From: a virus | Direction: 5' to 3' (one strand) | IMG/VR virus record: IMGVR_UViG_3300042923_000524 | Span: 1-64,000 of that record | DNA: 64,000 bases | Shown here: piece after piece, positions 12,332 to 53,312 of the stretch | Layout: the number at the start of each line of letters is the position of its first letter | Numbering within the stretch: position 1 is the stretch's first letter | Position numbers and translations under genes: made by a program | The notes under the pieces: generated by a model | Databases searched by the model: none | The model's input: only the letters and a program-made list of their open reading frames with translations | Told to the model about the DNA's origin: nothing

Positions 12332-12332
12332 A

Positions 12333-12497: not shown

Positions 12498-12539
12498 TAT
12501 TTACATTCTATCTAAAGTTAAAGAAAGGAGGATATAAAT

Positions 12540-12761: not shown

Positions 12762-12783
12762 TAAGAAAGGAGGAAAAGCAACA

Positions 12784-12957: not shown

Positions 12958-12969
12958 AAAGGAGTAAAA

Positions 12970-13227: not shown

Positions 13228-13258
13228 CCATGAAATAAATCTTTGGAGGAAATTAAAA

Positions 13259-13420
13259 ATGTTTAAAACTTTATTTTGTAAACATAGGTGGTTAGCAGAC
13301 GAAGCTAATCCATACAGTGATAAAAAATATTCTTGTCAATGCTCAAAATGTCTAAAATTAAAATTTATAAAGGGTAAGAAGATACCTAAAGAAAATATAC
13401 TCGATATAACATTTCTTTAA
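13259..13420 (+). CDS. Small CxH...CxxC protein (53 aa, DUF1660-like, not in ORF track)
   Basis: GGAGG RBS; MFKTLFCKHRW...CQCSKC; bounded by sites 13225 and 13412. Confidence 0.65.
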   Translation: MFKTLFCKHRWLADEANPYSDKKYSCQCSKCLKLKFIKGKKIPKENILDITFL

Positions 13421-13464
13421 AACCTTTGTTTCAAAGACAAATATAAAATAATAGGAGGAATTGA

Positions 13465-14124
13465 ATGATATATTTAATTAGTGATATACATGGAGAATAT
13501 GATTTATTTATAAAATTATTAGAACAAATCAATTTCAACACAAAAGAAGATAAGTTATATATTATAGGAGATGTGGTTGATAGAGGAAAAGATTCAATTA
13601 AAGCACTACAATATATTTATGGAAATCAAGATAGTATGATATTACTAAAAGGCAATCATGAAGATATGATGATAAATGCTTTTAAGTATTACGACAATTA
13701 TCATTGGTTTAGCAATGGAGGAAAAGTAACTTTTGATGAGTATATGAATTTATCTAAAACAGAACAAAATAAGATTTTAAAATACATAAATGAATTACCA
13801 TGTTTATTACAGATTCAAGTTGATAATAAAAAATACATATTATCTCATGCAGGAATTCAAACAGACCATAATGGTAATATAATAGAAACACAAGACCAAG
13901 ATTTTATGTTGTGGTCAAGAGAAGAATTTCTCAACGATACAGAAATTTCAAATGATGTTATGGTAGTAGTGGGTCATACCCCTACAGTATATTTACATAA
14001 AAGTGCTTTGATATGGCATAGTGAATGTGGTAAGAAAATTTGTATAGACTGTGGAGCAGTATTTGGTTATAAACTAGCGTGTTTAAGGCTTGATGATATG
14101 AAAGAATTTTATGTATCTAAATGA
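13465..14124 (+). CDS. Metallophosphoesterase (PphA/NinI-like Ser/Thr phosphatase family)
   Basis: SDIHG, IGDVVDRG, LKGNHE, HAG, GHTPT, IDCG. Confidence 0.9.
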   Translation: MIYLISDIHGEYDLFIKLLEQINFNTKEDKLYIIGDVVDRGKDSIKALQYIYGNQDSMILLKGNHEDMMINAFKYYDNYHWFSNGGKVTFDEYMNLSKTEQNKILKYINELPCLLQIQVDNKKYILSHAGIQTDHNGNIIETQDQDFMLWSREEFLNDTEISNDVMVVVGHTPTVYLHKSALIWHSECGKKICIDCGAVFGYKLACLRLDDMKEFYVSK

Positions 14125-14232
14125 CATAAAAAACACCTAATACTAACAGTCTACCCACTATAAAATAATGGCTTAAAACAGCTTTAAATCACATGTAATA
14201 ATAGGTAAAAATAAATGATAAGGAGAAATGAA

Positions 14233-14607
14233 ATGGTTAAATTATGGTTTCAACATGAAATACCAAAAGGTTATCAAGAGACTCTAAAAATGAACAATAT
14301 AGATATAAATGATGTTAAATACATAGTAGAAGCAGATAGTGGTGCTGGTGAAATAGCAAAGCAACTAGGAAGTGTAAAAGCAATATCAACTATAACTGAA
14401 CATTGGTTACATGTTGTATATGAAAAACAAAATGATATTACTATTGAAGAATTAGACTTTTCAGTAATGGTTTATAATTCTTTGAAGAGAAATGGAATTA
14501 ATTATAAATCAGAAATAGAACAAATGACAGAAAAAGATATACTTAAAATAAGGAATATGGATACAAGAAGATTATTAGAAATTAAAGAAAAAGTAAACAT
14601 TCAATAA
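14233..14607 (+). CDS. Protein with C-terminal RNA polymerase alpha-CTD-like domain
   Basis: IEELDFSVMVYNSLKRNGINYKSEIEQMTEKDILKIRNM aligns by eye with alpha-CTD IEELxLSVRSYNCLKRAGI...LLKVRNLG; RBS AAGGAG at 14220. Confidence 0.7.
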   Translation: MVKLWFQHEIPKGYQETLKMNNIDINDVKYIVEADSGAGEIAKQLGSVKAISTITEHWLHVVYEKQNDITIEELDFSVMVYNSLKRNGINYKSEIEQMTEKDILKIRNMDTRRLLEIKEKVNIQ

Positions 14608-14642
14608 AAGCATTATTTGCTTGAAACAGAAAGGAGAATTTA

Positions 14643-14954
14643 ATGAAAGAGATTTTATGTTATCAGTGTGAAATATGTGGTGAAGTACATACCAATAAAA
14701 ATGAAGCATTAAAATGTGAGGGAATTGGTAAACAAGAACCACTTGCTAAAGTAGGAGACTTAATAAACTATAATTACAATGTTAGTGGATTTGAATGTGT
14801 TGGTACTATCAAAGTTAGTAAAATAATACAAGAAGGACATTTTATTAAATATAAAATCAAATCCCAAGATTACGAAGGTAGATGGATTAATGGGTTTTAT
14901 GGAACTGAGTATATTTGGGGTAATAATGAATTTATAAGAAGAACAACTCAATGA
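14643..14954 (+). CDS. Hypothetical protein with CxxC (103 aa)
   Basis: AAAGGAG RBS; YQCEICG...ALKCE. Confidence 0.65.
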   Translation: MKEILCYQCEICGEVHTNKNEALKCEGIGKQEPLAKVGDLINYNYNVSGFECVGTIKVSKIIQEGHFIKYKIKSQDYEGRWINGFYGTEYIWGNNEFIRRTTQ

Positions 14955-14999
14955 CCTCAAAATGGAAATTCTAACGAAATGAAAGGAGAAAAGTAATAT

Positions 15000-15188
15000 A
15001 TGAAAATTATAAGAAATCAATTTGGAATTGCTAAATTTAAAGTTGAAAATGAAGAGGAACGTAATATAGTTAATAGTTATTTAAAATTGTTAGAAACGGC
15101 ACTAAATGATAATGATGGGGATATTGATTATTATATGTGTTGGGATAGTATTCAAAATGATATATTTTATCATTCAAGTTCTGAATAA
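15000..15188 (+). CDS. Hypothetical protein (62 aa)
   Basis: AAAGGAG RBS; single ORF between two sites. Confidence 0.65.
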   Translation: MKIIRNQFGIAKFKVENEEERNIVNSYLKLLETALNDNDGDIDYYMCWDSIQNDIFYHSSSE

Positions 15189-15241
15189 ATCTCAACTGAA
15201 TCAATGTTTCATTTAGATATTAATTAAGAAAGGATGATAAA

Positions 15242-15466
15242 ATGAAAAAACACAACATACAACTAGGTTACAAAGATTTACTTGCGATTAAACATAGCCT
15301 TAAAAGAACAATCAAAGCAAAGAATTTTACACTATTAAACTATAATGAATCTGGTCTACATATTAAAGAAATAGAACAATATAAAGCAGACATAGAGCAT
15401 GAAACTAAACTACTAGAAAGAATTACAGAAAAAATTAATTATATTAAAGACTTATATAAAATTTAG
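15242..15466 (+). CDS. Hypothetical protein (74 aa)
   Basis: AAAGGA RBS. Confidence 0.6.
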   Translation: MKKHNIQLGYKDLLAIKHSLKRTIKAKNFTLLNYNESGLHIKEIEQYKADIEHETKLLERITEKINYIKDLYKI

Positions 15467-15494
15467 TGCATATAATGTAAAAGGAGGAATGGAA

Positions 15495-15638
15495 TTGTTA
15501 GAATGTACATATTGTAAAACGCAACTTCTATATCAATATAAATTATCTAAAACAGAAGAATTGTATCAATGTCCAGAATGTAAGAGAGAGTTCATGTATG
15601 ATGCTGAAGATAATTATTTTAGTGAGTTGGAAGATTAA
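15495..15638 (+). CDS. Zinc-ribbon miniprotein (47 aa, not in ORF track)
   Basis: AAGGAGG RBS; (M)LECTYCK...YQCPECKREF. Confidence 0.65.
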   Translation: MLECTYCKTQLLYQYKLSKTEELYQCPECKREFMYDAEDNYFSELED

Positions 15639-15676
15639 ATAACCATAAAAACAATATTTGGTCGAAAGGAGAAGTT

Positions 15677-15949
15677 ATGTTTAGATTAGAAGAAGGTAGA
15701 GAAAAGAAAGGTGGAGTAAACCCACCACCTACAACACCCAAACCAAACTTTCATCCACCTGCTCAAAAGTCTAATAATTATTTTAAATTGTCAGATATTG
15801 AAAGTTGTGCAATGTCAAAAGAAGAAATGTGGAAAACATTAAATGGTAAAACAGTAAAGTGTATACATACTCAAGATGGTGATTTTCATATGTTTGCAGT
15901 GCAAGATTTAGAGTCTAAAAAAGTATATATGCTTGATAATTCAAGATAA
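15677..15949 (+). CDS. Hypothetical protein with Pro-rich N-terminus (90 aa)
   Basis: AAAGGAG RBS; KKGGVNPPPTTPKP. Confidence 0.65.
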   Translation: MFRLEEGREKKGGVNPPPTTPKPNFHPPAQKSNNYFKLSDIESCAMSKEEMWKTLNGKTVKCIHTQDGDFHMFAVQDLESKKVYMLDNSR

Positions 15950-15977
15950 AATTGTTGTTTGGATGAAAGGAGAAACA

Positions 15978-16136
15978 ATGGAAGGATGTAAGGGATATTC
16001 ATATTGGACTGATAATGGAACGGAATATGATTGTGAATATGAGTTTGCAGGAGATATAGATTGTGGAGATTGTATCTTTAACGTTTATGGAGGTACACAA
16101 GACCCTAGAATAAATAACTATGAAAATGAAGAATAG
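15978..16136 (+). CDS. Cys-containing miniprotein (52 aa)
   Basis: Start moved to ATG 15978 after the AAAGGAG that follows site 15941; CKG...YDCEY...CGDC. Confidence 0.6.
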   Translation: MEGCKGYSYWTDNGTEYDCEYEFAGDIDCGDCIFNVYGGTQDPRINNYENEE

Positions 16137-16228
16137 TTCAAGTGCTACAACCATTGTAATTGCTTGATTGTAGAAATGAAATATTTTGATGAAATGAGAC
16201 CTTTATCTAGATATGAAAGGAGATTATT

Positions 16229-16411
16229 ATGTTAAAAATCGAATGTAATTGTGGTCAAAAGGGTTACTTAGAATATATGTATGATGAAAATGATATGATT
16301 ACTTTATCATTAGACATTGACACTATGAACGTTAATTATAGTGAATATTCTGGATTGCAGTTTAAGTGTCCTAAATGTAAAAAAACTTATGATATTATAA
16401 GAGTTCAATAA
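16229..16411 (+). CDS. Zinc-ribbon miniprotein (60 aa)
   Basis: CNCG...CPKC; AAAGGAG RBS. Confidence 0.65.
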   Translation: MLKIECNCGQKGYLEYMYDENDMITLSLDIDTMNVNYSEYSGLQFKCPKCKKTYDIIRVQ

Positions 16412-16450
16412 GTTTCATCAGAAACTAGATTTTATTGAAAGGAGAGAAAC

Positions 16451-16603
16451 ATGTTAAAAATATTAATACTTAATAATCAAAAGGAAGATGGAAGATTTGT
16501 AATATTAGGTTTTGAAATATTTGGTTGGGGATTCGGATTAGGTGCATCCACAGGAAAATATTTAGATACTTTTGCAATAGGTATTGTGACTTATATATTA
16601 TAA
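16451..16603 (+). CDS. Hydrophobic miniprotein (50 aa, not in ORF track)
   Basis: AAAGGAG RBS directly after site 16413; MLKILILNNQKEDGRFVILGFEIFGWGFGLG. Confidence 0.55.
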   Translation: MLKILILNNQKEDGRFVILGFEIFGWGFGLGASTGKYLDTFAIGIVTYIL

Positions 16604-16640
16604 ACAATATAAAATTAATAAATAGGAAGTGATGTTTAAA

Positions 16641-17021
16641 ATGACGGAATGGAGAAAATTGACATCACGAATGACTAAGTGGGAAGTAAAATACCTACAG
16701 GAATTAATAAATAATAACAAGTTTGATTATACTTATTACTCATACATAAGGTTGAATGAACGTGAAATACCAGAAACATCAGTTGAAAAGACAATTAAAT
16801 ATGGAAACATAATAGAGTTCCATTACAAAGATGGGGATGCTAGAGTGTTATTGAGGGGTAGGTCAAATGTAGATGGATATTCTATCTGTGTTGTTTTGAG
16901 CCTAAGTAAGAAACAAATTATTACAATCTACAAGAATGAGTTTATGGATAACCACGATACATTACACAATGAGATTTATAATAATAAAATAGATATAATG
17001 AAATATATAAAAGTAAGTTAA
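16641..17021 (+). CDS. DUF4258-like (BrnT/RelE-fold) protein
   Basis: YSYIRLNEREI...IKYGNIIE...RVLLR...ICVV...IITIYKN pattern. Confidence 0.55.
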   Translation: MTEWRKLTSRMTKWEVKYLQELINNNKFDYTYYSYIRLNEREIPETSVEKTIKYGNIIEFHYKDGDARVLLRGRSNVDGYSICVVLSLSKKQIITIYKNEFMDNHDTLHNEIYNNKIDIMKYIKVS

Positions 17022-17032
17022 GGAGGAAGGAA

Positions 17033-17392
17033 ATGAATAATAGAAAACAAAAAGTATTTAGTATGTTAGATTCACTTACTAAAAAGGAAATCTATGATTA
17101 CATAAAGGAACGAAATATAATAGCAAAAGGCATGAAAGAAGATTTAAGTAGGATTGCTAAAACAAAACAACCATCTCATTTTGAAACTTTATCAAATAAT
17201 ATTACTGGTAATCTAAATGAGATTCTGAGTAATCATTATAGATTAGGCGAAGCTTACATAGTCGCTTTTGTACTAGAGTGTTTTTATGACAATAAATATA
17301 AAATAAAAGATTTACAATGGTACTTAAAAGAAATGATAAAAGCAGATGAAACATTAAAAGAATATGTTTATGAAATAATGAAAGATTTTTAA
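17033..17392 (+). CDS. Hypothetical protein (119 aa)
   Basis: AAGGAGG RBS. Confidence 0.6.
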   Translation: MNNRKQKVFSMLDSLTKKEIYDYIKERNIIAKGMKEDLSRIAKTKQPSHFETLSNNITGNLNEILSNHYRLGEAYIVAFVLECFYDNKYKIKDLQWYLKEMIKADETLKEYVYEIMKDF

Positions 17393-17438
17393 GTTTTAAT
17401 AGAATTAGATTTCTATTGAGATATTGAAAGGAGAAAGT

Positions 17439-17663
17439 ATGTTTGAAAAGAATCCTAAATATACAATGAAAAATTTTCATCAATTAGTTAATCAAGAAAT
17501 CATTACAGTTGAATTAACAAAAGATGAATTACATTGTTTACAAAACTTTCTAGATGAATATGTAAGTATGTTTAAAAGACCCTCCTTGCAACTAGGAACA
17601 CACAAAGATGTTATAAATGCGTTATATAAGCTAGGTATGGTTAATGTAAAAGATATTGTTTAA
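17439..17663 (+). CDS. Hypothetical protein (74 aa)
   Basis: AAAGGAG RBS; start moved to ATG 17439. Confidence 0.6.
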   Translation: MFEKNPKYTMKNFHQLVNQEIITVELTKDELHCLQNFLDEYVSMFKRPSLQLGTHKDVINALYKLGMVNVKDIV

Positions 17664-17711
17664 TATGTAAATAAAATATAACTTTGATTGAATTATTAGA
17701 AAGGAGGATTT

Positions 17712-17942
17712 ATGGATAAATTACAGCAGGTAGAAAATGAATTAATCATATTACAAAGCGAAATTAAAAAATTAAAAAGTAAAGAAGATATCTTGCTAAA
17801 AGAAAGAAGAACAATTATTCAATCTAATTGTAAACATGAATTTGAATGGACTGGTTATTGTGAGGATGATTTAGAAAATAATATTATAGAATATCAAATG
17901 GAGTGTAAAAAATGTTATTTAATTGAATGGGATAAAGTTTAA
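17712..17942 (+). CDS. Coiled-coil plus CxH/CxxC protein (76 aa)
   Basis: CKHEFE...ECKKC; AAAGGAGG RBS. Confidence 0.65.
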   Translation: MDKLQQVENELIILQSEIKKLKSKEDILLKERRTIIQSNCKHEFEWTGYCEDDLENNIIEYQMECKKCYLIEWDKV

Positions 17943-17996
17943 ACCGAATTTAGCTTTGATTAAAATACATTTAATAAAGAAAGGTAGGAACTATAT

Positions 17997-18212
17997 TTGT
18001 TTTATGTAATAAGTAAGAATCCAGAATCAATATTTGAAGAAGAAGGTAAAATTAGAACTGCTAAAAAAGTATATTCAATACAATATAAACATGGTTATCC
18101 ATTTTTCACTTTTTATGAAAAAGGTCAATGGATAATTAGAAGTGCTAAACATTATATACCTATAGATGAAAATAGAATTAGATGTGGGCATGTATATTTA
18201 GATAAAATGTAG
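17997..18212 (+). CDS. Hypothetical protein (71 aa)
   Basis: AAAGGTAGG RBS, TTG start; stop codon lies in site 18197. Confidence 0.6.
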   Translation: MFYVISKNPESIFEEEGKIRTAKKVYSIQYKHGYPFFTFYEKGQWIIRSAKHYIPIDENRIRCGHVYLDKM

Positions 18213-18234
18213 TTTCTATTGAAAGGAGATTTTT

Positions 18235-18483
18235 ATGAAAATAAAAACTAAATCAGGTAAAGTTTATGAGCTTACAGACATAAGAGAAAAGACATCAAAA
18301 GAATTTTACGCTTATTGGAATGATTATTATATAGGGATAACTAAAGAAAAACCTATAAATAAAGGTGATAAAAGATGGTATATTCAATGTACTCACCCAG
18401 ACGGATGTTATATCTATGATGGTTATTTTTATGGAACATTTACCGAAGCACTAAAAGATGTATTTTGGAACATTGAACTTTAA
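18235..18483 (+). CDS. Hypothetical protein (82 aa)
   Basis: AAAGGAG RBS. Confidence 0.65.
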   Translation: MKIKTKSGKVYELTDIREKTSKEFYAYWNDYYIGITKEKPINKGDKRWYIQCTHPDGCYIYDGYFYGTFTEALKDVFWNIEL

Positions 18484-18517
18484 ATTGAATTAAGATTTCA
18501 AAGAAAGGAGAATTATA

Positions 18518-18808
18518 TTGAGAGAATTAAGAGATGGTGAACCATGTAGTCATAAGGGATGTTTGCATCATATTTCTCATCCATGTGAAGGCTGTGGTAG
18601 AATTGCAGGAAAATATACTTTAGAATCAGCTATAGAATCATATAAGTTTGGATTTGCAGTTACATATGATGGAGATAACCATGAAATAAAATATGGCACA
18701 AAATGTAATCATTGTGGTAAATATTTTGAATCTTATAGTTTAGATATATATTGTTTAGATTGCTGTATTCAATATATAGCTAATTTAAAATCAGTAACAA
18801 GACTATAA
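18518..18808 (+). CDS. Cys/His-rich protein (96 aa)
   Basis: GEPCSHKGCLHHISHPCEGCG...CNHC...CLDC. Confidence 0.65.
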   Translation: MRELRDGEPCSHKGCLHHISHPCEGCGRIAGKYTLESAIESYKFGFAVTYDGDNHEIKYGTKCNHCGKYFESYSLDIYCLDCCIQYIANLKSVTRL

Positions 18809-18841
18809 AAGAATCATTTGCTTGAAAGTTAAGGAGGATTT

Positions 18842-19093
18842 ATGGAAGTTAAAAGACCTACTTATGATAGACCAGAAGAAAATTTAAAACCAACAAAAGT
18901 TGAATTTTGGACTTATGGTTGTCAAAATGGTACAATTCAAATTTGGTTTGATAAAGGCACTAGATATATAGAAATTGGTGATAAAGATTTTGAATGTATG
19001 AGAAGTTGGGTTGATATGGATAAAAAGATGAAAATATACGAAGAAATTCAAAAATCCAAAACGCTACAACCATTGGAAACACTAGGTTCTTAA
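18842..19093 (+). CDS. Hypothetical protein (83 aa)
   Basis: AAGGAGG RBS. Confidence 0.65.
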   Translation: MEVKRPTYDRPEENLKPTKVEFWTYGCQNGTIQIWFDKGTRYIEIGDKDFECMRSWVDMDKKMKIYEEIQKSKTLQPLETLGS

Positions 19094-19134
19094 AATCAAA
19101 TATTTCGATAAAAGAGGAATTTGGAGGACAATTA

Positions 19135-19524
19135 ATGTGGAAAAAGAAAATTAGAATCACACTAAATCAAGAAGATATTATTCCTTCAGCTAATGAATTA
19201 TTTAATATACATAATTATATAGTTTTAAACAAAGCACAAAAATTAGCTGAAAAATACATAAGGCTTATATCTAATAGAGTTAAATATAGAAGTGAACATG
19301 GAGTTTTGTGGGAGTCTTTCTCAAGACACAGTGAAAAAGAAGGAGAAGAAATTTTTAGATTCTTTTCGTTTTGTGATTCTGGCTATACAAGTGAAATAAT
19401 TAAATTATGTGAGCAATTTGTATTTGCTTACTTTAAGGAATTAGGATATTTAATAGAGTGGAGAGATAGTAGTGTATGTAGGAACGAAAAAGTAATTTAT
19501 ATATCTTGGGATAAATCACAATAA
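19135..19524 (+). CDS. Hypothetical protein (129 aa)
   Basis: GGAGG RBS. Confidence 0.65.
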   Translation: MWKKKIRITLNQEDIIPSANELFNIHNYIVLNKAQKLAEKYIRLISNRVKYRSEHGVLWESFSRHSEKEGEEIFRFFSFCDSGYTSEIIKLCEQFVFAYFKELGYLIEWRDSSVCRNEKVIYISWDKSQ

Positions 19525-19590
19525 AAAAGTTATTTCATAGAAACTTGATACAATTGGCACTTTTCTTAAATAGTGCAGGAGGTGATACAA

Positions 19591-20178
19591 ATATATAAAC
19601 GACCACAAAATGAAACAGAAACGCATTTTCTACTAAAAGAAATATCTAAATATATATTATTTGGATGGGGATATAATAGAATAGGGACTGAAGTCAATGG
19701 AATGTATTCTTATGACATTAAAGAGAATGGTAAAGACTTTAAGAGTATTATTGATGCGGTTGGTGTAAAAAGATGTAGACAGAAGAAGTTAAAAGATGGT
19801 CAATCGCTATACTATTATGATGTAAAAGGAATAGAAGCCAAAGCAACATTAGCAGACTTTAAAAATGGTTTCTGTGCAGCACCTATGTACACATATATTA
19901 TTGCTCCTATTAATACTATACCAATAGAATTAATCCCTGATAAGATAGGATTTATAGAAGTGGATTTAGATAACTTTAAACTACCGAAGAAATCGCAGAT
20001 GATATCAGATATGAAAGGTGTTAAATTAGTCAAGAGAGCCTACAAAAGACTGGATAGAAGATTTAAAACAGAAGAGGATTATAGAGAATGGTGTTCTGAA
20101 GTCTTAGATGATGTTGCATATAGAAGTACATCTGAGTTATTATTCTGGAGAAACTATATTGAGTTTAGTAAAAAGTAA
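19591..20178 (+). CDS. MmcB-like PD-(D/E)XK nuclease-fold protein (probable ATA start)
   Basis: IIDAVG...GIEAKATLADF...YIIAP; AGGAGGTG lies 6 nt before in-frame ATA 19591. Confidence 0.55.
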   Translation: MYKRPQNETETHFLLKEISKYILFGWGYNRIGTEVNGMYSYDIKENGKDFKSIIDAVGVKRCRQKKLKDGQSLYYYDVKGIEAKATLADFKNGFCAAPMYTYIIAPINTIPIELIPDKIGFIEVDLDNFKLPKKSQMISDMKGVKLVKRAYKRLDRRFKTEEDYREWCSEVLDDVAYRSTSELLFWRNYIEFSKK

Positions 20179-20207
20179 ATTTATAATAACAAATATAAAA
20201 TTATTAG

Positions 20208-20235
20208 TTGACAACTGAAAAATGCATGGTAAAAT
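20208..20235 (+). promoter_or_regulatory. Sigma-A promoter
   Basis: TTGACA-16bp-TAAAAT with extended TGn; same geometry as 11821. Confidence 0.75.
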
Positions 20236-20279
20236 GAATATAAGAGGTTAAGTTAAAGATTGAAGGAAGGAGGAAATAT

Positions 20280-20558
20280 ATGGTTAGGATAATAGAAACG
20301 AATTTATCCATAGATAATTTAGGAGCAATCCAAGACCATCAATCAAGAGTAATAGAAACGGAAAGTTGGATGTTATATGTTGATGAATTTATACATGGTA
20401 AAACAATTATCAGAAACTCATGTATAGGTAGCCTACATGGTGCTACTATTCCTAGAGAAGCAAAGATTGAGAATCTTACATATGATGAAAAGCATTTAAT
20501 GTGTGATATTACTAATTGGAAAAGTATAAAGAGTAAAAAGTTTGCTTATTTAGTTTAA
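20280..20558 (+). CDS. Hypothetical protein (92 aa)
   Basis: AAGGAGG RBS. Confidence 0.65.
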   Translation: MVRIIETNLSIDNLGAIQDHQSRVIETESWMLYVDEFIHGKTIIRNSCIGSLHGATIPREAKIENLTYDEKHLMCDITNWKSIKSKKFAYLV

Positions 20559-20699
20559 ACACTTTTTGTAACACATTTGTAACATGAGAATCAAAGCAAA
20601 CGAGAGCATAAACGAGAAAACGAGAGATACAAAAGCCAAAAATGACCATAAAATGTCTCTTTCATCTAAACTTCAAAATCTAGGAAAGGAGTAATTAAT

Positions 20700-20840
20700 A
20701 TGAAGGGAATAGAAATTAAAGTCGTTGACAATAGGAAAGATAGTTTTAAGATTTACTATATCAAACCTACTGAAGACGAATACAAAGCAATTTCAAAGAT
20801 ACTTGATATTAAAGAAATAGAGCCAGATTGGGAAGATTAG
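20700..20840 (+). CDS. Hypothetical miniprotein (46 aa, not in ORF track)
   Basis: AAAGGAG RBS; MKGIEIKVVDNRKDS...EPDWED. Confidence 0.55.
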   Translation: MKGIEIKVVDNRKDSFKIYYIKPTEDEYKAISKILDIKEIEPDWED

Positions 20841-20925
20841 AATAAGAGATAAAGGGTAGAGAGATTTTAATTAAGGTTAAGGGTTGTATATGATTAATAT
20901 AAAAATAATATTTAGGAGGTTAAAA

Positions 20926-21162
20926 ATGAAAGATTTTTTTAAAAAGTTTGGATACATATTTAATTTAGCTTTAGATGGTTGGTTGATAGGTTTATGGGTA
21001 GGACATTTTATACAGCTTTGTAGAGGTATTGAATTAGACAAAGTTACTATAGGAGTTTCTTTGATAATTACTATCGGATTTTTAATCAAGATGCTCATAA
21101 AAGATTTAACAAAGTCAAATATAGTTGATATAAAAATAAATATTAAAGGAGAAATAGAATAA
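20926..21162 (+). CDS. Small 2-TM membrane protein
   Basis: AGGAGGT RBS before ATG 20926; two hydrophobic helices. Confidence 0.6.
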   Translation: MKDFFKKFGYIFNLALDGWLIGLWVGHFIQLCRGIELDKVTIGVSLIITIGFLIKMLIKDLTKSNIVDIKINIKGEIE

Positions 21163-21566
21163 TGAGTTTATTAATGATGGTTTTAGTTATTGGTTTTATA
21201 ATAGGGATTGCATTATTTGTAACTGGATTAATATGTTGGATTGATTGGTCTCTGATATTAATAGGAATTATAATCATGTTGGTTTGTGGGTTTGGAGCAA
21301 GTGAAATTGTAGAAAATGCTCCTTATAGAGATATAAATAGTAATAATATAGTAGTTGAATATGCAAGGGTTAATGAAGTTACTGACAAAACAATTGTTCT
21401 AGATAATACTAAATATGTAACTGAAAATAATAAAGCCTTTAATGAAACTTTTAATTTGAAATATCCAATAAGATTAAGTGATTTTAGTATAGGAGACATT
21501 GTAAAATATCAACTTATATCTACAGACTTTGATGACTACTTAATTAGAATTGAAAAGGTTCAATAA
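21162..21566 (+). CDS. Membrane-anchored protein (2 N-terminal TM)
   Basis: Hydrophobic N-terminus; AAGGAG RBS. Confidence 0.6.
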   Translation: MSLLMMVLVIGFIIGIALFVTGLICWIDWSLILIGIIIMLVCGFGASEIVENAPYRDINSNNIVVEYARVNEVTDKTIVLDNTKYVTENNKAFNETFNLKYPIRLSDFSIGDIVKYQLISTDFDDYLIRIEKVQ

Positions 21567-21602
21567 AAGACAAATTTGATGGAAATATTAAGGAGTATAA
21601 TA

Positions 21603-29099: not shown

Positions 29100-30860
29100 A
29101 TGAATAAACTTATTACACAAGATAGTAATATAGAACCCTTACCCCTACGTGCTATTGCTTTATACAGAGTTTCCACTAAATCTCAGGTTGGTGAAGACAA
29201 TGATTTACCAACCCAGAAGAAATTAGTTCAAGACTATATATGGAACAATAAACTCAAACTCATCCAAGAGTTCACTGAAGGTGGTATAAGTGGATTTAAG
29301 AATCTTGCCGAAGATAGAGATGCGATAATATCAATTTTAGCTATGGCAAAAAGAAAAGAGTTTGATGTTCTTTGTATATATCACTCAAACAGACTTGGAA
29401 GATTGGCAGATAATACACCTGCTCTCATAAAACAATTGAGTCAATATAAGGTTAAAGTAATCAGTGTGGTAGAAGGAGAATTAAAAGCAGACACACCGAT
29501 AAATCGATTAATGAATAATATCAGATATTTTGGTAATGAACAAGAGAGTGTTTATAAATCTGAAACAATATCAGATTATCATTTAGCTATGGTTGAAGAA
29601 GGTAGATTTAGAGGTGGCAATATGATTCCATTAGGATATAAGTTAGAAGACAATAATAGTAAAAATTTTAAAGGTAAACATATATTAGATTTTGTAATTA
29701 ATGAAGAATATGTTGAATTAATTAAATTAATATATAATCTTTCTATTAATATGAATTATGGTCAATCAAGAATAGCTAAGTATTTAAATGAAAATGGATA
29801 CAAGACTAAGAATGGAAAAGGTTGGCACTCAACTTCGATAGGTGCAATATTAAATAATCCTATATATAAAGGTCAATTTAAAATGACGAGTAAAGTAAGA
29901 GAAAAAACCGTGTTGTCACCTATAAGAGAAGATTTAATTATTATACCTCCTGAATTATGGGATAGAAACCAAGAAATAATTCAATCAAGAAGATATGTTA
30001 AAGTTATAGATGATGTCAGAGATAGAAGAGAAACTAAAAATATCTATGGTAAAATGCTATTAAATGGTATGGCATATTGTGGTAATTGTGGTATGGCTCT
30101 AACAACTCAAACTGCTTATAAAAATTGGACTACAGCAGATGGAGTTAAACATAAGAGTTCTTATTATAAATATAGATGTAGCTCATTTTATAAAAAAGGC
30201 TCTGTTAAATGTGATGGTCAAAGCACATATGGCATGACGGTAATAGAACCTGTGGCTATTAAATACGCAAAAACAATTATTAAAAAACTTCAACAAAAGG
30301 AATTAAAAGATTCATTTTTTATGCAGTTTGATAAAAATATTGAAGGATATATAAAGCAAAAACAATCACTTAGACAAGAGATAGAAAAACATTATGAGGA
30401 ATTAAAAACCTTAAAACAAGAAGTGGTTAAAGTATTAATGGGTCAAAGTGAATTCGATAAAGTTTTATTAAATGAATTAATTCAACAAAAACAAGATGAA
30501 ATAAGCAGTAAAACTATTTTACTAGATGGTATTGATTTTAAAATAAGCAAAGAAAAAGATGCTAAAAGTAAATATAATGCACTTAACAATGAATTTGTTG
30601 ATTGGGAAGAAAGATTTGATAATGCTCCATTTGAAGTTAAAAGATTAATGCTGTCTAAGGTTATTAAAAGATTTATAGTATATAATAGAAAAGAATTTGA
30701 GATAGAGTACGATATAACCATTGATACTTTTAATGAAAATGCTGAAGTAAAGAGTGTACATGTGGGTAGTAAAGATACAGATGGCGTTAGAACCAATAAT
30801 GTATATCTACAACCCATAAGTATATACAAGGAAACTATTAAAGTTAAACTTGCAAGTTAA
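29100..30860 (+). CDS. Large serine recombinase (phage integrase type)
   Basis: YRVSTKSQ (catalytic Ser), EGGISG, NRLGR, PLGY, Zn ribbon LLNGMAYCGNCG...YRC...C, C-terminal coiled coil. Confidence 0.92.
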   Translation: MNKLITQDSNIEPLPLRAIALYRVSTKSQVGEDNDLPTQKKLVQDYIWNNKLKLIQEFTEGGISGFKNLAEDRDAIISILAMAKRKEFDVLCIYHSNRLGRLADNTPALIKQLSQYKVKVISVVEGELKADTPINRLMNNIRYFGNEQESVYKSETISDYHLAMVEEGRFRGGNMIPLGYKLEDNNSKNFKGKHILDFVINEEYVELIKLIYNLSINMNYGQSRIAKYLNENGYKTKNGKGWHSTSIGAILNNPIYKGQFKMTSKVREKTVLSPIREDLIIIPPELWDRNQEIIQSRRYVKVIDDVRDRRETKNIYGKMLLNGMAYCGNCGMALTTQTAYKNWTTADGVKHKSSYYKYRCSSFYKKGSVKCDGQSTYGMTVIEPVAIKYAKTIIKKLQQKELKDSFFMQFDKNIEGYIKQKQSLRQEIEKHYEELKTLKQEVVKVLMGQSEFDKVLLNELIQQKQDEISSKTILLDGIDFKISKEKDAKSKYNALNNEFVDWEERFDNAPFEVKRLMLSKVIKRFIVYNRKEFEIEYDITIDTFNENAEVKSVHVGSKDTDGVRTNNVYLQPISIYKETIKVKLAS

Positions 30861-43571: not shown

Positions 43572-43598
43572 AAAAAGAAGCCTTATTTCTAAGGCTTC
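43572..43598 (-). terminator. Intrinsic terminator after the TMP
   Basis: Minus strand GAAGCCTTA-GAAA-TAAGGCTTC-TTTTT. Confidence 0.75.
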
Positions 43599-46500
43599 CA
43601 ACCACCACCAAGTTTTGAATATTCTCTTTTTATGTTGTGCATTATTTTATTTGTAATATCACCTATAGAATCATTATCAACATTTTGAGCGTATATATTT
43701 ATATTGCCAAAATTCAAATTACCACTTCCACCAACCCCTGCCATAGAAGGAATCTTAGGCATACTTAAATTAGGCATAAAATTATTAAACCCACTTAATA
43801 TTTTTTGAGTTATATCAGCAGGGAATACTTGAGAATGTTTAGGTAGGTTAATTAACTCTGCACCATTTTCACCTACAATACTCATTCCGCCTATTGCATC
43901 TTTAGTACCATTTGCATATTGGGGAAAAGAACCTGTAGTGTTAATATTGATACTGCCCATAGAATCCAACAACGCTTTAGCTTTCTCTAACTTACCAACA
44001 AACTCACTCTGCAAATTACCACCCAACACACCTAAAGTCTCTCCAAACGTATTTGAGAAGGTTACAAAGGCTTCTTGAACTGTTACTAACTTACCATTGA
44101 TATCTGTAACCATACCAGTTGTTAAGGTTTTATTAGCTTCAGTATAAAGATTACCCTCTTGTAATAATTTTTCATAATTAGTTTTAATAATCTCAAATCG
44201 CTTTTCTTCTGCTTCTTTGGCATTTTTAATTTTCTGTTCCTTTTCATCCAAACTATTTTGAAGTGCTTGTTTGCGTAATTCATCTTCTCTATCTTGTTGT
44301 AAGTCTAATAAATTTTCACGATTTTCGGATAATTCTTTATCTATTTCTTTTATACGATTAATGGCAACTAAATCACCTGATGAAGCTGCCATTGCTAATG
44401 TGTTACGTTCATTTGTAAGTGTTGAAATATTGCCTGTGATTTTATTTTGATTTTTAGAGAAGTCTTCAGCATCACGAAGTTTATCAATTGCATCAATTTG
44501 TTCTTGAATATTACTTTTATATTTATCAAGTTCTTTATCAAGTTTGTCTAATTTCTTTTTGTGTGCTTTATCGGCTTCATCTAGTTCTAATTCGTAACGC
44601 TTTTTGATTATTTCAACTATTTGTTTTTGAACATCTTCTAGGTTTTTGGTTTGTTCTTCAAGAGTTTTAGTTTCGAGTTCTTCAGCCTTTTTAGCGAAAT
44701 CATCCATAACGTTCAGATTTGCATCGATAGCACTCTCAAGTTTCCACCATTCCAAAGAAGTTGATTGTATCATATCGGTCAACTCTTGATGTCTGTCAGA
44801 ACCAACTTTTAATGTTGCTAACTCTTTGTTTCTAGCAACATTAAGTTTATGTAAATTATCTTGTTGTTGCTCCAACATTTCATTACGTTTCTTTAGAATT
44901 GGAATTTGGTCGGAATCTTCTGTTTGGGAGAGGATTTCTTGTTGTTTTGAGAGTTCAAAATTTAGGTCACGAATGGTATTGTATAGGGATTGATAAGGTT
45001 TTTCTGAGTCTGCTTTATCACCACCACCCCTAACACCAGAAGCATTAGGAGTTTTAGTTGTGGTAGAACCATATTTTAATCTATTGCTTTCTATATCACC
45101 ACTAGAACTTCCACCCAACATTACTTCAGCAGACATAGCATTTAATTCTGATAGTTTTTGTTTTAAACCATTAATTCTATCTATTGTTGCTTTTTCTTTG
45201 GCTGGTGTAATAACTCCTGCAAAACCACTGCTAAAAGTTTCTCGTTCTACATTATTTATTTGTGCTTTTAGTTTTGTTTTTTCGTTTTCAATATCTTGTA
45301 ACGCTTCTCTACGTTTTTCATCCGTTGCTAATTTAACCGCACTTGCGAGGTCTTCATATTTGATTTTTTCCATATCCAAATTAGCAAAGACACTTGGGTA
45401 CATCTTTTGTAATTCTGCTGTTACTCTACCCATGCGTGTTTTCTCATCTACAGATAATGATTCTTTATTAGCAAGGTCGGAGATACTTTTCATTAATTTA
45501 TCTGCTTCAGTAGATTCATCAGAAAAAGCTTTTGCATTTTTTATAGCATTGTCATACATTTTCTGTTGATGTTTTTTGTATAAGTTGAAAGCAATAATTA
45601 ATCCACCTATAGCTAAAGCCAACCCTGAAACAACTGGATTGATGGCAGCTAAAGTCCAATTCATTGTTGCAATACCTTTAATAAAATTTTGAACTGCTAC
45701 TAAAGATTTAACTATATTATTTGAAAAGATTATTATAGTTGCTGATAAAGCTATTATTGCAATATTAACCAAACCTACACCGTCTGAGAATTGAACAAGA
45801 CCTATACCCATTTCTATAAATTTACCAATTTGTTCAGAATTAAAAGTATTCAAAAATAATTCTTCCCATGTTGCTTTTAGTTTATTTGCCTTTGACTCGT
45901 TCGATTCAAGATAGATACCAAACTTCTCGTTTGTTGTTCCAGTAGCTTGTAAGGCTTTATTATATAAAGTTGTTGCTTCTGTTAAACCATCCATTAGATT
46001 GTAGAATCTTGATTGTTGTCTTGCCCCCGCAAGTGTGGTGGCGAGGTAAGCCTTTGTATTAGTATCCAAACCATCCCATTTAGTACCAAGTTGCTCAACG
46101 ACTAAATCAAATCTTCTTATTTGACCTTCACCATCAGTTAAACTAATGTTTACAGCTTTTAAGGCTTTTGCCACGTCATTAATACGTGTCTCATCTTCTT
46201 CATTCCATCCAGTCTCCGTTAAGTTTTGGAATCTTGCCAACAAAGCCTTCATGCTTGTTCCAATAGATTCGGCTGACTCTCTTGTTTTACTGGAAATTAC
46301 TGCAATATAGCTGGTGATTTTTTCAAATGGTATATTCAATGCACCTGCCGAACCTGCTACTTTTTGCATAGCTCTACCAATTTCTGCACCACTCGTTGCC
46401 GTTGCATCTCCGAGGAATGTCATTACGTCTGAAGCACGTTCAATATCTACACCCATAGAGTTAACTACAGCAGTAAGAATTTCTGCTGATTGCGTAAAAT

Positions 46501-47269
46501 CTTCATTGGTTATTTTTGCATATTTAGTAGCAGTTTCAGTTCTATTCATAACCTCTTCTTGAGTTAGACCTTGTCTGTAAAACTCAACTGATGCCTTGGT
46601 TATATCTTGTGTTCCAACACCCATGATTTTAGCTAATTGATTATATTCTCTACCAAGCCTTTCTACTGAATCGGCAGTTTTGCCAGTAACTATACGAATT
46701 TCATTAAGGCTATTAGATAATTCATAAACAAACTTAACGCCTTCTCTAAATTTCTTTATACTTCCGTAAATTACTTGAGTCGCAATTGCCCACTCTGCAA
46801 TCCTCTTTAAAGCGATTCCAACGTCTTTAGAAAATGTATTATTTTCTCTATTTGTTTGCCTTATTTGTCTACCAGTCAATTCCATGTTTCCATTTAATTT
46901 ATTAATAGTACCAGAATATGTAACTATCTGATTTTGTCCATTATTTAAAGACTGAGTAAAATTTTCAAAATTTTTACCAACTTCTTTGGTTGAATATCCA
47001 ATTATCTTCATACCTTTATCAATAGGTGTTTTAGACAAATCAAATTTGCCTAATGCATTTAAATTATCTTGAACCTTTAACAATTCATTAGAAATTTCTT
47101 TAACCTGTGTTTTACCACTAGACAAACCAGAGTTTGAACCAGAACCACTTCCACCCATATTAAGTGGAATATTTACTTTAGTTTTATTTAATTTATTTAT
47201 TATTCCATCAAGTTCTTTATATGACTGTTTATAATCAAATAAGACTTTTATTCCTAATTTATCTGCCAA
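43589..47269 (-). CDS. Tape measure protein (TP901-core type)
   Basis: 1226 aa, helical; EIRIVTG...AK.MG..T.DI..A..F.RQG...A..ESIG..MK...RF core, central TM-like segment. Confidence 0.9.
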   Translation of the reverse strand: MADKLGIKVLFDYKQSYKELDGIINKLNKTKVNIPLNMGGSGSGSNSGLSSGKTQVKEISNELLKVQDNLNALGKFDLSKTPIDKGMKIIGYSTKEVGKNFENFTQSLNNGQNQIVTYSGTINKLNGNMELTGRQIRQTNRENNTFSKDVGIALKRIAEWAIATQVIYGSIKKFREGVKFVYELSNSLNEIRIVTGKTADSVERLGREYNQLAKIMGVGTQDITKASVEFYRQGLTQEEVMNRTETATKYAKITNEDFTQSAEILTAVVNSMGVDIERASDVMTFLGDATATSGAEIGRAMQKVAGSAGALNIPFEKITSYIAVISSKTRESAESIGTSMKALLARFQNLTETGWNEEDETRINDVAKALKAVNISLTDGEGQIRRFDLVVEQLGTKWDGLDTNTKAYLATTLAGARQQSRFYNLMDGLTEATTLYNKALQATGTTNEKFGIYLESNESKANKLKATWEELFLNTFNSEQIGKFIEMGIGLVQFSDGVGLVNIAIIALSATIIIFSNNIVKSLVAVQNFIKGIATMNWTLAAINPVVSGLALAIGGLIIAFNLYKKHQQKMYDNAIKNAKAFSDESTEADKLMKSISDLANKESLSVDEKTRMGRVTAELQKMYPSVFANLDMEKIKYEDLASAVKLATDEKRREALQDIENEKTKLKAQINNVERETFSSGFAGVITPAKEKATIDRINGLKQKLSELNAMSAEVMLGGSSSGDIESNRLKYGSTTTKTPNASGVRGGGDKADSEKPYQSLYNTIRDLNFELSKQQEILSQTEDSDQIPILKKRNEMLEQQQDNLHKLNVARNKELATLKVGSDRHQELTDMIQSTSLEWWKLESAIDANLNVMDDFAKKAEELETKTLEEQTKNLEDVQKQIVEIIKKRYELELDEADKAHKKKLDKLDKELDKYKSNIQEQIDAIDKLRDAEDFSKNQNKITGNISTLTNERNTLAMAASSGDLVAINRIKEIDKELSENRENLLDLQQDREDELRKQALQNSLDEKEQKIKNAKEAEEKRFEIIKTNYEKLLQEGNLYTEANKTLTTGMVTDINGKLVTVQEAFVTFSNTFGETLGVLGGNLQSEFVGKLEKAKALLDSMGSININTTGSFPQYANGTKDAIGGMSIVGENGAELINLPKHSQVFPADITQKILSGFNNFMPNLSMPKIPSMAGVGGSGNLNFGNINIYAQNVDNDSIGDITNKIMHNIKREYSKLGGGWKP

Positions 47270-50989: not shown

Positions 50990-51301
50990 TCATTTTACCT
51001 TATAATCAAACAAATCATCAAACTGACAGCCTAGTAATATTATTAATTTAATTAAGATTTCCAAAGTAATATTATTAGCTCTACAAATAGCATCAAGTCT
51101 CTGTCTGCTTACCCCTAACTTTTTAGCTATAAGTCCTTTAGATACACCTGTGCGTTTTTTATAATCATCTAGTTGAAGTCCTATATTGTTTGTTATCTCT
51201 ATTTCAATAGGCTGTTCATAGTTAACTTTAGTTTCTTGAATAAAGTCATTTACTATTTTAGCTAAACCTTGTTCGTAATCTTTTATATCTTTATCTCCCA
51301 T
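50990..51301 (-). CDS. XRE/Cro-type HTH regulator
   Basis: L..YKKRTGVSKGLIAKKLGVSRQRLDAI...ITLE.LIKL..LLGCQFDDLF. Confidence 0.85.
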   Translation of the reverse strand: MGDKDIKDYEQGLAKIVNDFIQETKVNYEQPIEIEITNNIGLQLDDYKKRTGVSKGLIAKKLGVSRQRLDAICRANNITLEILIKLIILLGCQFDDLFDYKVK

Positions 51302-51487
51302 ATCACACAATCCTCTCAATCATCTTCTTATCATATTCATATTATATCATTATTAATATGTATTTGTTAACATGAGAGATTGTTATTTATTAGGATTATT
51401 TACGTTGTTTATAAGTATATTACAAATGTGCATGACTTATTCATATTATTTTATAAATTTTATATTTATTTTTAAATCATTAATATG

Positions 51488-51515
51488 ATTATAATACATT
51501 AGAAAATATTGTCAA
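51488..51515 (-). promoter_or_regulatory. Sigma-A promoter of the HTH gene
   Basis: Minus strand TTGACA-16bp-TATAAT. Confidence 0.75.
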
Positions 51516-51543
51516 GCATTATTTTTAGATTTTATATTAGTTA

Positions 51544-52572
51544 TTATAAGTCACTCAATCCTTTTTTCTCTACTTCCTTCATGCCATTTTCATCAAAGTA
51601 TTTGCCCAGTTCTTCATCAACTTCAGTATCATTATAAATTGACACCATATCTGTTGACTCCCAACCTACTATACTTTTTATAACTTCCGCAGGAATATTA
51701 TTTTTACACATCTCAGTAGTATAGAAATGTCTTAAACTATGCCAGTAAAAATCAACACCTAATATTTGTGAGAACGTCATTGCATAACTATCTAATAAAG
51801 TTGTGTCTGCTGGCTTATTTGATTTACCATATGAACTCCAAAACAACTCTTCACCTATAATTCCTAATTCTTCTCTTTGTTTCATCCACAAATCAAAATA
51901 GGGTTTAAATTTACCAACTATAATATATTTAAAAATTAACTTACCCTTAGAACTTCTGCCTTTAGTTTTTATCTTTTCTGGTGTTTTATATAAAGAACCA
52001 TACATAATATTTTCATCTTTAAAATAACTTACTTTAAATCTAAGCAATTCTGATTTTCTAGCTCCACTTGCGACCCCTAAAGCAAAAGCACAAGCTTGTT
52101 GATATTTCTTATTTTCCATAAGATAATCTAATAAAAATTGCACTTGCTCATCTGTTAAAACAGTCTTTTCTCTTACTGCTTGTTTAACTGGTGCTGGGAC
52201 TTTATTGATTATATTTCTGAAAGCAGGATATAAATCATCCATCATTGACTCTATAAAATTTGACATACTGCTTATAGAAGACTTTAATCTTCTTATTCTA
52301 CTAGAACTATGTTTCAACTCATTTAATAAATAATTTTGGTATTTCATTATATCTCTTTTATTTACCTCATAAAATATCTTATTATTATTCTTTTGTAGAT
52401 TCCAGACATAAAAAATCCTAATATCATCGTGATATGATTCAATTGTTCTAGGACTCTTATCAACCGATTGAAGATACTCTATAAAATCGTTAAGTAAATC
52501 TTTATTCTCTTGACAAACTTTACTATATAATTCCTCGGTTACTATATTATTATATATTGATGCTCTTGCCAT
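51544..52572 (-). CDS. Xer/Cre-like tyrosine recombinase (core-binding + catalytic domains, no arm-binding domain)
   Basis: KSPRTIESY..DI..F core-binding domain; catalytic set intact: GARKSEL, KTKG, HSLRH, VGW, SIYN. Confidence 0.9.
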   Translation of the reverse strand: MARASIYNNIVTEELYSKVCQENKDLLNDFIEYLQSVDKSPRTIESYHDDIRIFYVWNLQKNNNKIFYEVNKRDIMKYQNYLLNELKHSSSRIRRLKSSISSMSNFIESMMDDLYPAFRNIINKVPAPVKQAVREKTVLTDEQVQFLLDYLMENKKYQQACAFALGVASGARKSELLRFKVSYFKDENIMYGSLYKTPEKIKTKGRSSKGKLIFKYIIVGKFKPYFDLWMKQREELGIIGEELFWSSYGKSNKPADTTLLDSYAMTFSQILGVDFYWHSLRHFYTTEMCKNNIPAEVIKSIVGWESTDMVSIYNDTEVDEELGKYFDENGMKEVEKKGLSDL

Positions 52573-52642
52573 TTAATTTCACTCCTTATGTATTTTTATA
52601 TTATTTATTTATATATCAAACATTTCTGTTTATTTCCAAACT

Positions 52643-52668
52643 AAAAGAGAGTATCTTACAACTCCCTT
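52643..52668 (-). terminator. Terminator upstream of the recombinase gene
   Basis: Minus strand AAGGGAGT-tgtaagat-ACTCTCTT-TT. Confidence 0.5.
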
Positions 52669-52852
52669 ATTTTCCACGTTTACAAACGCATCCCAAGCCT
52701 TTTCCTTTTGCCAACTTAATTTTGTAATTAGCAAATTCCTTGCAATCATCTTTGTCTTTACATTTCTCACAATGTGAACTATCGTAAATTTTATACTCTT
52801 TACGCTTTTCTCTGGTATCTGGATTATTCTTACTTGATTTCTTAGTTGCCAT
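52667..52852 (-). CDS. Basic Cys-rich miniprotein (61 aa)
   Basis: HCEKCKDKDDC...GCVC; AGGAAG RBS. Confidence 0.6.
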   Translation of the reverse strand: MATKKSSKNNPDTREKRKEYKIYDSSHCEKCKDKDDCKEFANYKIKLAKGKGLGCVCKRGK

Positions 52853-53008
52853 AACTTTCACTTCCTAAATTTATTGCTTATATTTAACACTCAAATGCTT
52901 CTGTGAGTGATTATATTAAAGTTTGGTAAATGTTTATGTGTTTTAGGTATAAACTATTACTAACCTTAAAACTTAAATTAAACGCACGTTATTTGTGTTT
53001 GGACTAAC

Positions 53009-53036
53009 TTTAAACCAAACCAAAATTTGGTTGAAA
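53009..53036. repeat. Most symmetric copy of the 11-6-11 site
   Basis: TTTAAACCAAA-CCAAAA-TTTGGTTGAAA; arms 10/11 self-complementary. Confidence 0.75.
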
Positions 53037-53057
53037 CAATATTAAAAAATAGTAAAA

Positions 53058-53107
53058 AATAAGAGAAAGGCACGAGCCTTTTGAGCATCAGCAACCTTTC
53101 TCTTATT
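53058..53107 (-). terminator. Large-loop hairpin/terminator closing the major-tail operon
   Basis: 13-bp perfect stem AATAAGAGAAAGG/CCTTTCTCTTATT around 24 nt; T tract follows on the minus strand. Confidence 0.6.
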
Positions 53108-53117
53108 GTTGTTTTAT

Positions 53118-53312
53118 TTAGTTTTCGTCTTGTATAACTTCAGCCTTTTTATTATGTTTTTTAGGTTCTAAATCAGTCCATTCAAAGTCAATGGGTTCAA
53201 ACAAAACCTTTATCTTATCTAAACTTAATTCTTTCTTCAGTTCTTCTAAATTATAAGTTTGACTAATACTATACTTCATTGCAGATGGATGATTATATTT
53301 TAAATATTTCAC
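53118..53312 (-). CDS. Hypothetical tail-region protein (64 aa)
   Basis: Directly after the major tail gene. Confidence 0.55.
   Translation of the reverse strand: MKYLKYNHPSAMKYSISQTYNLEELKKELSLDKIKVLFEPIDFEWTDLEPKKHNKKAEVIQDEN

Follow-up and report, generated by a model that had tools for sequence, protein, structure and literature searches.

A genome-wide family of gene-junction sites includes the palindrome upstream of a YomM/gp50-type tyrosine recombinase in an SPbeta-like phage

Does a tyrosine recombinase encoded among the late genes of an SPbeta-like phage act on a palindrome upstream of its own gene, and on the many similar sites of the same genome? This question is raised by bases 1-64000 (the window) of the 137,947-bp IMG/VR virus record IMGVR_UViG_3300042923_000524, whose whole genome is labeled G000 below. 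In the window a palindrome at 53009-53036 lies 437-464 nt upstream of the ATG of a gene for a 342-aa tyrosine recombinase. According to the original prediction, which was made from the nucleotide sequence, the recombinase is the cognate binder of the palindrome, which would be an attI-like or dimer-resolution site linking the enzyme to an array of related sites elsewhere in the genome. The analysis described here places the palindrome in a large family of junction sites and assigns the protein to the simple Xer/Cre-type recombinases, while the search for the binder of the family points, tentatively, to a repressor.

The palindrome and the junction-site family

The arms of the palindrome are complementary at 10 of 11 positions, as had been described, and its location upstream of the recombinase gene stands as well; the long intergenic gap in which it was said to lie, however, holds an intrinsic terminator and an open reading frame (ORF) of 61 aa. 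Along the - strand a tail structural gene and a 64-aa ORF come first, followed by the strong intrinsic terminator, the palindrome, a stretch of about 150 nt, the 61-aa ORF and the recombinase gene. Counting palindromes with 11-nt arms, at most one mismatch and a 6-nt spacer (11-6-11) gave 6 in the window versus 2.85 +/- 1.85 in Markov simulations, 94% of which contained at least one. Since the count is near that of the simulations, the 11-6-11 geometry by itself carries no weight. Half-site matches to the arms (at most one mismatch) were likewise at or near chance. An RNA hairpin or terminator at 53009 was ruled out, as its stem would be weak and is not followed by a U run.

Searches with half-sites and fixed patterns had made the link between the palindrome and the array appear as pure chance, which was overturned by a weight matrix. 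The strict consensus A[ACT]AAAA-N5-ATTTG[AG]T occurs 10 times in the genome (1.0 expected), and 8 of the 10 copies are intergenic. A matrix of 30 columns was iterated from eight strict-consensus sites, the 53008 site being left out of the training, and yielded 51 sites above 18 bits over the genome, nearly all of them intergenic, where 0.2 were expected. With this matrix positions 53008-53037 score 23.7 bits on both strands, and the palindrome is the sole match without mismatch to AACCAAA-N6-TTTGGTT in the genome, both inner 7-nt arms being perfect. The palindrome is a true and strong member of the genome-wide family and its most symmetric one, which bears out the earlier view that it has core-site geometry, belongs to the array family and is its most perfect copy. 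Its left arm differs by one base from site 17938, as had been noted; its right arm, which had been placed two bases away from array sites, is in fact one base away from those at 14616 and 18817.

The family comprises about 50-70 quasi-palindromic 11-6-11 sites on both strands, nearly all at gene junctions of early regions, with a few members in gaps of the late region. The array extends over 11.9-21.6 kb and continues beyond 89 kb, and the recombinase gene is found at 51.5 kb. Within the early small-gene region (Table 1) each site comes after a stop codon and ahead of the ribosome-binding site that follows. Among 67 junction sites, complementarity of the mirrored arms equaled the shuffled expectation at all 12 pairs (z -2.3 to +1.3). 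Because the mirrored arms do not covary, the sites are neither RNA hairpins nor folded attC-like structures, which argues for a double-stranded DNA motif with two independent half-sites. With arms that do not covary and an array that is not adjacent to the gene, an integron-like link lacks two defining features of integrons. An unbiased search for enriched 6-mer palindromes in G000 gave nothing significant, because the family is too degenerate.

Arrays were also detected in the genomes G001 and G006. G001 has no ACCAAA-N6-TTTGGT at all and might be taken as motif-free, which is ruled out by its ATAAAA-N6-TTTTAT sites, as these belong to the junction family; its array gives 40 matrix matches above 12 bits versus 2.9 expected. 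In the G006 array ATAAAA-N6-TTTTAT occurs 27 times versus 1.4 expected. A search for inverted repeats common to three genomes found none.

Two further observations were made around these sites. In G006 (e.g. at 74151, 79273, 82634 and 84877) a second palindrome around CGTTGAAATTTCAACG often stands about 25 nt after ATAAAA-N6-TTTTAT, and TTGAAA-N0-TTTCAA was counted 9 times versus 0.18 expected; together the two palindromes resemble a composite early promoter or operator. Beside ACCAAA-N6-TTTGGT sites, a hairpin-like element of about 20 nt, AATCCC-AATATWWC-GGGATT, was seen, the loop sequence of which is kept across different phages. It is present in G002 (51259, 53844, 78573 and 90484) and, about 45-70 nt after the recombinase stop codon, at the loci L006, L045, L047 and L052, in L006 in reverse orientation.

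The position of the family between genes raises a first explanation, namely that the sites are transcription or translation signals and no protein operator, for instance stop-codon context combined with an A/T-rich spacer and an extended ribosome-binding region, UP-like elements or weak attenuators; the palindrome at 53009 would then be a stray or chance copy without any role for the recombinase. Sites do occur 0-25 nt after stop codons, with a right arm that often enters GAAAGGAG or is GGAGG, but the arms mirror each other over about 11 nt, also at positions far from ribosome-binding sites. In G006 a TTGAAA-containing palindrome, which resembles part of a promoter, comes at a constant distance after the motif, whereas the conserved AAA-N-TTT core and the fixed 6-nt spacing of the family are typical of dimer binding. 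Bare palindromes of the quality of 53009 are expected about 3 times per window, and this one adjoins a terminator with no + strand gene after it. Nevertheless, the presence of the family on both strands and in a few late-region gaps does not fit such signals well, and the missing covariation speaks against an RNA hairpin. We regard this explanation as rather unlikely.

An arm-less recombinase of the YomM/gp50 type

The 342-aa protein contains the Pfam domains Phage_int_SAM_4 (residues 26-102) and Phage_integrase (residues 138-316). Across 25 relatives of 47-79% identity the residues R172, E175, K204, H278, R281, W304 and Y313 are invariant, and they line up with the motifs of XerA. The set R-E-K-H-R-W-Y is the one listed for Cre (PMC10516654), W304 being the Trp that had been predicted for the His/Trp position; in the repressor MrpR four of the seven catalytic residues are lost (PMC10516654). 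A profile search of the PDB with the recombinase family found XerA, an archaeal XerC-like protein and XerH; a single-sequence phmmer search against the PDB gave no match. Full-length alignments of the AlphaFold2 (AF2) model (predicted local distance difference test score 84) were obtained with XerA, IntI, Cre, XerH, Tn1549 Int and the lambda Int core, those with Cre, IntI and XerH spanning 305-345 columns. Neither the Pfam assignment nor the comparison of the model reveals an N-terminal arm-binding domain. Because the catalytic heptad is invariant and the fold matches are full-length without an extra domain, sequence and model identify the protein as a live, arm-less, simple Xer/Cre-type tyrosine recombinase, a class assignment which is firm and which agrees with the original prediction. 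Homologs are numerous: the protein collection holds 2809 at E <= 1e-5 (the 120 listed among these are 58-100% identical and mostly 340-345 aa long), and 424 loci were obtained from IMG/VR.

In tblastn searches of phage records SPbeta yomM was matched at 27.5% identity (E = 2e-15). The matches to yomM of SPBc2 and to the recombinases of Tsamsa, PBC2, 6ec and SEP9 cover 77-93% of the query, and further ones were found in phi3T, in Enterococcus and Lactobacillus siphoviruses of 80-90 kb and in Geobacillus E3. Judged by sequence comparison, the recombinase is an ortholog of SPbeta YomM and tyrovirus gp50, and this type of recombinase is a core gene of long-tailed siphoviruses of Firmicutes. The role of these proteins has been called unclear (PMC6507118, PMC9703825), and a literature search for yomM found no paper naming the gene. 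The gene belongs to the late module in the window and its relatives as well as in SPbeta and PBC2, and is placed between the tail/neck genes and the tape measure gene, on the same strand. It thus shares with YomM and gp50 (and with 6ec and SEP9; lytic Staphylococcus cluster D) the two-domain architecture, the place in the late module and the occurrence in phages that either use a different enzyme for integration or do not integrate. It differs in that six ORFs separate it from the tape measure gene, which encode a helix-turn-helix (HTH) protein, a 98-aa protein, an HNH endonuclease and three proteins of about 160-170 aa.

The conservation of the recombinase is exceptional. It is the best-conserved protein between G000 and G001 (70% identity), followed at 61% by a 622-aa protein (62563-64431) that might be the terminase by position only, and it ranks second versus G002 (66%); capsid and tail proteins of G000 and G001/G002 are 25-45% identical. 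Alignment of G000 at the DNA level with two large divergent relatives yielded 3-5 stretches, chiefly the recombinase gene and the gene at 62.6-65 kb. This high conservation implies an important task in the lytic cycle. On either side the recombinase gene is flanked by variable regions in which nuclease genes accumulate. Between it and the tape measure gene, a 443-aa HNH/homing-endonuclease-like protein with repeated zinc-ribbon modules is encoded (49011-50342, - strand), and nuclease genes also flank the recombinase gene in relatives (a GIY-YIG-like gene in L009, a 328-aa gene in L037). A search near the recombinase gene for long-range inverted repeats marking an invertible segment found A/T-rich low-complexity pairs only.

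The phage further encodes a large serine recombinase (Table 1), so that the YomM-type enzyme is not needed for integration and is not the integrase. Multimer resolution, cyclisation and the exchange of modules beside its own gene are candidate tasks. By analogy to Cre, XerH and XerA, a pair of recombinase monomers would occupy a site at its inverted arms of about 11 bp, which flank a 6-8-bp overlap; two sites of this kind would synapse, and Tyr313 would cut and rejoin the strands via a Holliday intermediate. The protein resembles the enzymes of the Cre/loxP, XerH/difH and XerA/dif systems in fold, catalytic heptad and lack of an arm-binding domain, with a Trp as in Cre, and the candidate site resembles dif in its two inverted 11-bp arms and 6-bp center. 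In contrast to the sites of these systems, it is one of about 50 copies and not unique.

Candidate binders of the junction family

The most likely binder of the family, though held tentatively and on comparative grounds, is a predicted repressor of the MrpR/SroF type. G000 encodes a homolog of MrpR, YopR and SroF with a dead recombinase fold, which is preceded by a yopQ-like gene (109026-110336); 200 nt past the MrpR homolog there is a strong junction-family site (111527, 23 bits). In SPbeta and phi3T the dead-recombinase repressor MrpR/SroF binds a long box (SPBRE) that is repeated over the genome (PMC10516654; bioRxiv 10.1101/2025.11.27.690993). The genomes with arrays, G000, G001 and G006, each encode an MrpR homolog, while neither an MrpR match nor an array of any palindrome was found in G009 (complete, 192 kb), which encodes a recombinase of 53% identity. 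The repressor is favored because the arrays track the MrpR homolog and because of the SPbeta precedent; its recombinase fold would, in addition, explain the core-site-like geometry of the junction sites. The recombinase gene, located between the late tail genes and the tape measure gene, is transcribed with the former. A repressor on 53009 would be located just past the terminator of the tail operon, in front of the transcription unit of the recombinase, and would contribute to keeping that unit silent in the lysogen. In mycobacteriophage L5, too, short intergenic gaps along operons contain numerous copies of a repressor site; these stoperators are, unlike the junction family, asymmetric 13-mers bound by an HTH repressor and oriented with transcription.

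Several points weigh against the repressor. The co-occurrence of array and MrpR homolog rests on five genomes, and the recombinase of G009 is just 53% identical. SroF reportedly binds an asymmetric box of 24-26 bp as a monomer, and the SPbeta sites, about 10 in number, lie in promoters, whereas the about 50-70 sites described here are quasi-palindromic and intercistronic, between stop codons and ribosome-binding sites. Their motif is also unlike the SPbeta box derived here (about CAAATACAAAWAATATGTATA). Finally, the motif is common to G000 and G001, in which the MrpR homologs are 35% and the recombinases 70% identical, a pattern that suits the recombinase better, and in some relatives family-type sites cluster at the borders of the recombinase gene.

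These last points lead to the explanation that the YomM-type recombinase itself binds the family, with 53009 as primary lox-, dif- or attI-like site and the junctions, which have differing centers, as secondary sites that could serve cassette swap or excision or the recombination of co-infecting genomes. The 11-6-11 geometry with two independent half-sites fits a recombinase dimer, and both motif and recombinase are kept between G000 and G001. When the flanks of the recombinase gene in 102 non-redundant relatives were scored with the G000 matrix, 4 loci had a match above 12 bits in the 55 nt around the stop codon, versus 0.16 expected from the rest of the loci. At a cut-off of 11 bits, 5 matches (all above 12 bits) were obtained at +1 to +44 past the stop codon and 4 (three above 12 bits) at 84-283 nt upstream of the start; in total 9 of the 102 relatives have family-type sites at one of these places, L013 with one site on either side of the gene. 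Similarly, 4 of 36 close relatives (0.39 expected) carry AACCAAA or TTTGGTT no more than 35 nt from the recombinase stop codon, versus 1 of 151 other genes. With intergenic DNA alone as background, however, the border enrichment drops to an estimated p of about 0.04-0.1. A block right after the stop codon is kept across contigs despite diverged coding DNA (ATAACCAAA-TCCTCA-TTTTGTTAT in L077, GATAAATCCCACATTTTGTC in L045). A nhmmer profile of this 3' element of relatives did not match 53009 (E > 50) and gave borderline matches elsewhere, and a search for shared 11-mers in the recombinase flanks of relatives found no conserved site.

The 3' border of the gene is of further interest in a clade of gut phages (53% identity; L115-L154 and L178), in which a different conserved block, GATGAAGCTTTCGTCTAA, occupies part of the 30 nt that follow the recombinase stop codon. 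Past GATGAAGCTTTCGTCTAA, no fewer than four unrelated downstream modules are attached at one and the same base, and genomes differ in having one or two copies of the unit ACTTCGTCTAA. This looks like a site-specific recombination junction and speaks for the recombinase. For tyrovirus gp50, a putative site with 6 bp between two 11-bp inverted repeats has been described right after the stop codon (PMC9703825), and we found this repeat in PBC2, single-copy in the genome. In the window no 11-6-11 repeat was found immediately after the stop codon, where just the left half of the 3' element of relatives, in degenerate form (TATAAAATC), precedes a promoter; a family-type palindrome lies 437 nt upstream instead. 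The sequence of this palindrome is unrelated to that of the PBC2 site, the sole other one compared.

Conversely, the 53009 site is absent from this position in about 100 relatives, including the closest one (79% identity), which has four other ORFs there. Co-occurrence of recombinase and array, named as a check by the original prediction, did not hold throughout, as the complete genome G009 has the recombinase without an array and the site of PBC2 stands alone. Moreover, 50-70 live recombination sites per genome would be hazardous, and no attC-like pairing was detected. At present the recombinase is therefore less likely than the repressor to be the cognate binder of the family, and we consider this assignment unlikely.

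A variant of this explanation, in which only matching junctions are recombined, depends on 6-bp centers that are specific to each site. The recombinase would swap modules between co-infecting or resident relatives and resolve multimers, and the copy beside its own gene (53009 here, the site after the stop codon in relatives) would be the primary site; as a whole this proposal appears improbable. It recalls integrons, which also combine a tyrosine recombinase with an array of small co-oriented genes parted by imperfect inverted repeats, and IntI is among the best fold matches of the AF2 model. The differences to integrons are that the arms do not covary, so that no folded attC-like structure is formed, that the array lies at least 30 kb from the recombinase gene without an adjacent attI/Pc arrangement, and that relatives exist with the enzyme but without the array.

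Genomic setting and biological meaning

The ends of the record share an overlap of 127 bp and the genome was therefore assembled as a circle of about 138 kb, with a G+C content of 28%. The + strand genes, which extend from about 77 kb across the origin up to 31.3 kb, are early, DNA-metabolism and lysogeny genes; those on the - strand (31.5-76.7 kb) are structural genes. With a large serine recombinase, DNA polymerase, helicase and tape measure gene, the layout is that of SPbeta. The features discussed are collected in Table 1.

Table 1. Positions of features in the window and elsewhere in the genome
Feature	Position	Strand	Basis
Early small-gene region	11889..21586	+	17 junction-family sites >15 bits (e.g. 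13224, 14598, 15639, 19102, 21557)
Large serine recombinase, likely integrase (SprA analogue)	29100..30860	+	PF00239 E = 2e-19; PHROG integrase E = 2e-72
Tape measure protein	43589..47269	-	PHROG tape-measure families, synteny
109-aa HTH_3 protein downstream of recombinase	50990..51319	-	Pfam; tblastn
Intergenic region 3' of recombinase	51320..51543	-	Promoter scan; comparison of 3' flanks of relatives
YomM/gp50-type tyrosine recombinase, 342 aa, core-binding and catalytic domains	51544..52572	-	Open ORF, Pfam, conservation, fold
61-aa Lys/Cys-rich ORF with ribosome-binding site, between palindrome and recombinase	52667..52852	-	ORF list
11-6-11 palindrome TTTAAACCAAA-CCAAAA-TTTGGTTGAAA	53009..53036	.	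Sequence; weight matrix
Intrinsic terminator closing upstream tail operon	53052..53107 (about)	-	14-bp G+C-containing stem and U run; terminator scan, RNA fold, region z = -3.5
64-aa ORF, last of tail operon	53118..53312	-	tblastn 44% in L037 (closest relative), 42% in G001; synteny
Second, canonical XerD-like tyrosine recombinase, 291 aa	Genome 101360-102235 (L002:1495-2370)		R, HxxR, H, Y in place
MrpR/YopR/SroF homolog, dead recombinase fold	Genome 110366-111331 (L189:3867-4832)		E = 2.1e-22 to MrpR 8A0A, 3.6e-23 to 9RD5

The XerD-like protein is possibly the counterpart of YopP or a multimer resolvase. For the 61-aa ORF between palindrome and recombinase no Pfam or PHROG match was obtained; one homolog (42% identical) is located upstream of the recombinase in L044. 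The promoter in the 3' intergenic region matches the consensus TTGACA-16-TATAAT at 12 of 12 positions and serves the HTH gene; one relative contig (loci L008/L051/L082) likewise has a homolog of the HTH protein downstream of the recombinase. A/T-rich palindromes (51332-51363) immediately before the HTH gene overlap a second consensus-like promoter (TTAACA-18-TATAAT with TG) and may be the operator of the HTH protein itself. Within the - strand late block a single + strand gene (39464-40153, 229 aa) was observed, and just 5' of it a 28-nt A/T-rich inverted repeat (39063-39090 / 39427-39454, 93% complementary).

Tyrosine recombinases of the tail module have repeatedly been noticed in SPbeta-like, Tsamsa-like and Staphylococcus 6ec-like phages and in many gut phages without a role being assigned to them. 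The window supplies candidate sites for this recombinase and a large, well-defined family of junction sites; the most interesting leads are the extreme conservation of the recombinase and the junction signature beside its gene. If the repressor binds the family, the MrpR/SroF system would extend from about 10 promoter boxes to genome-wide junction operators. If, on the other hand, the recombinase binds it, this would be a new phage route to module shuffling, and recombination between matching junctions, if true, would represent a phage-borne integron analogue with double-strand sites and would explain why the recombinase is at the top of conservation.

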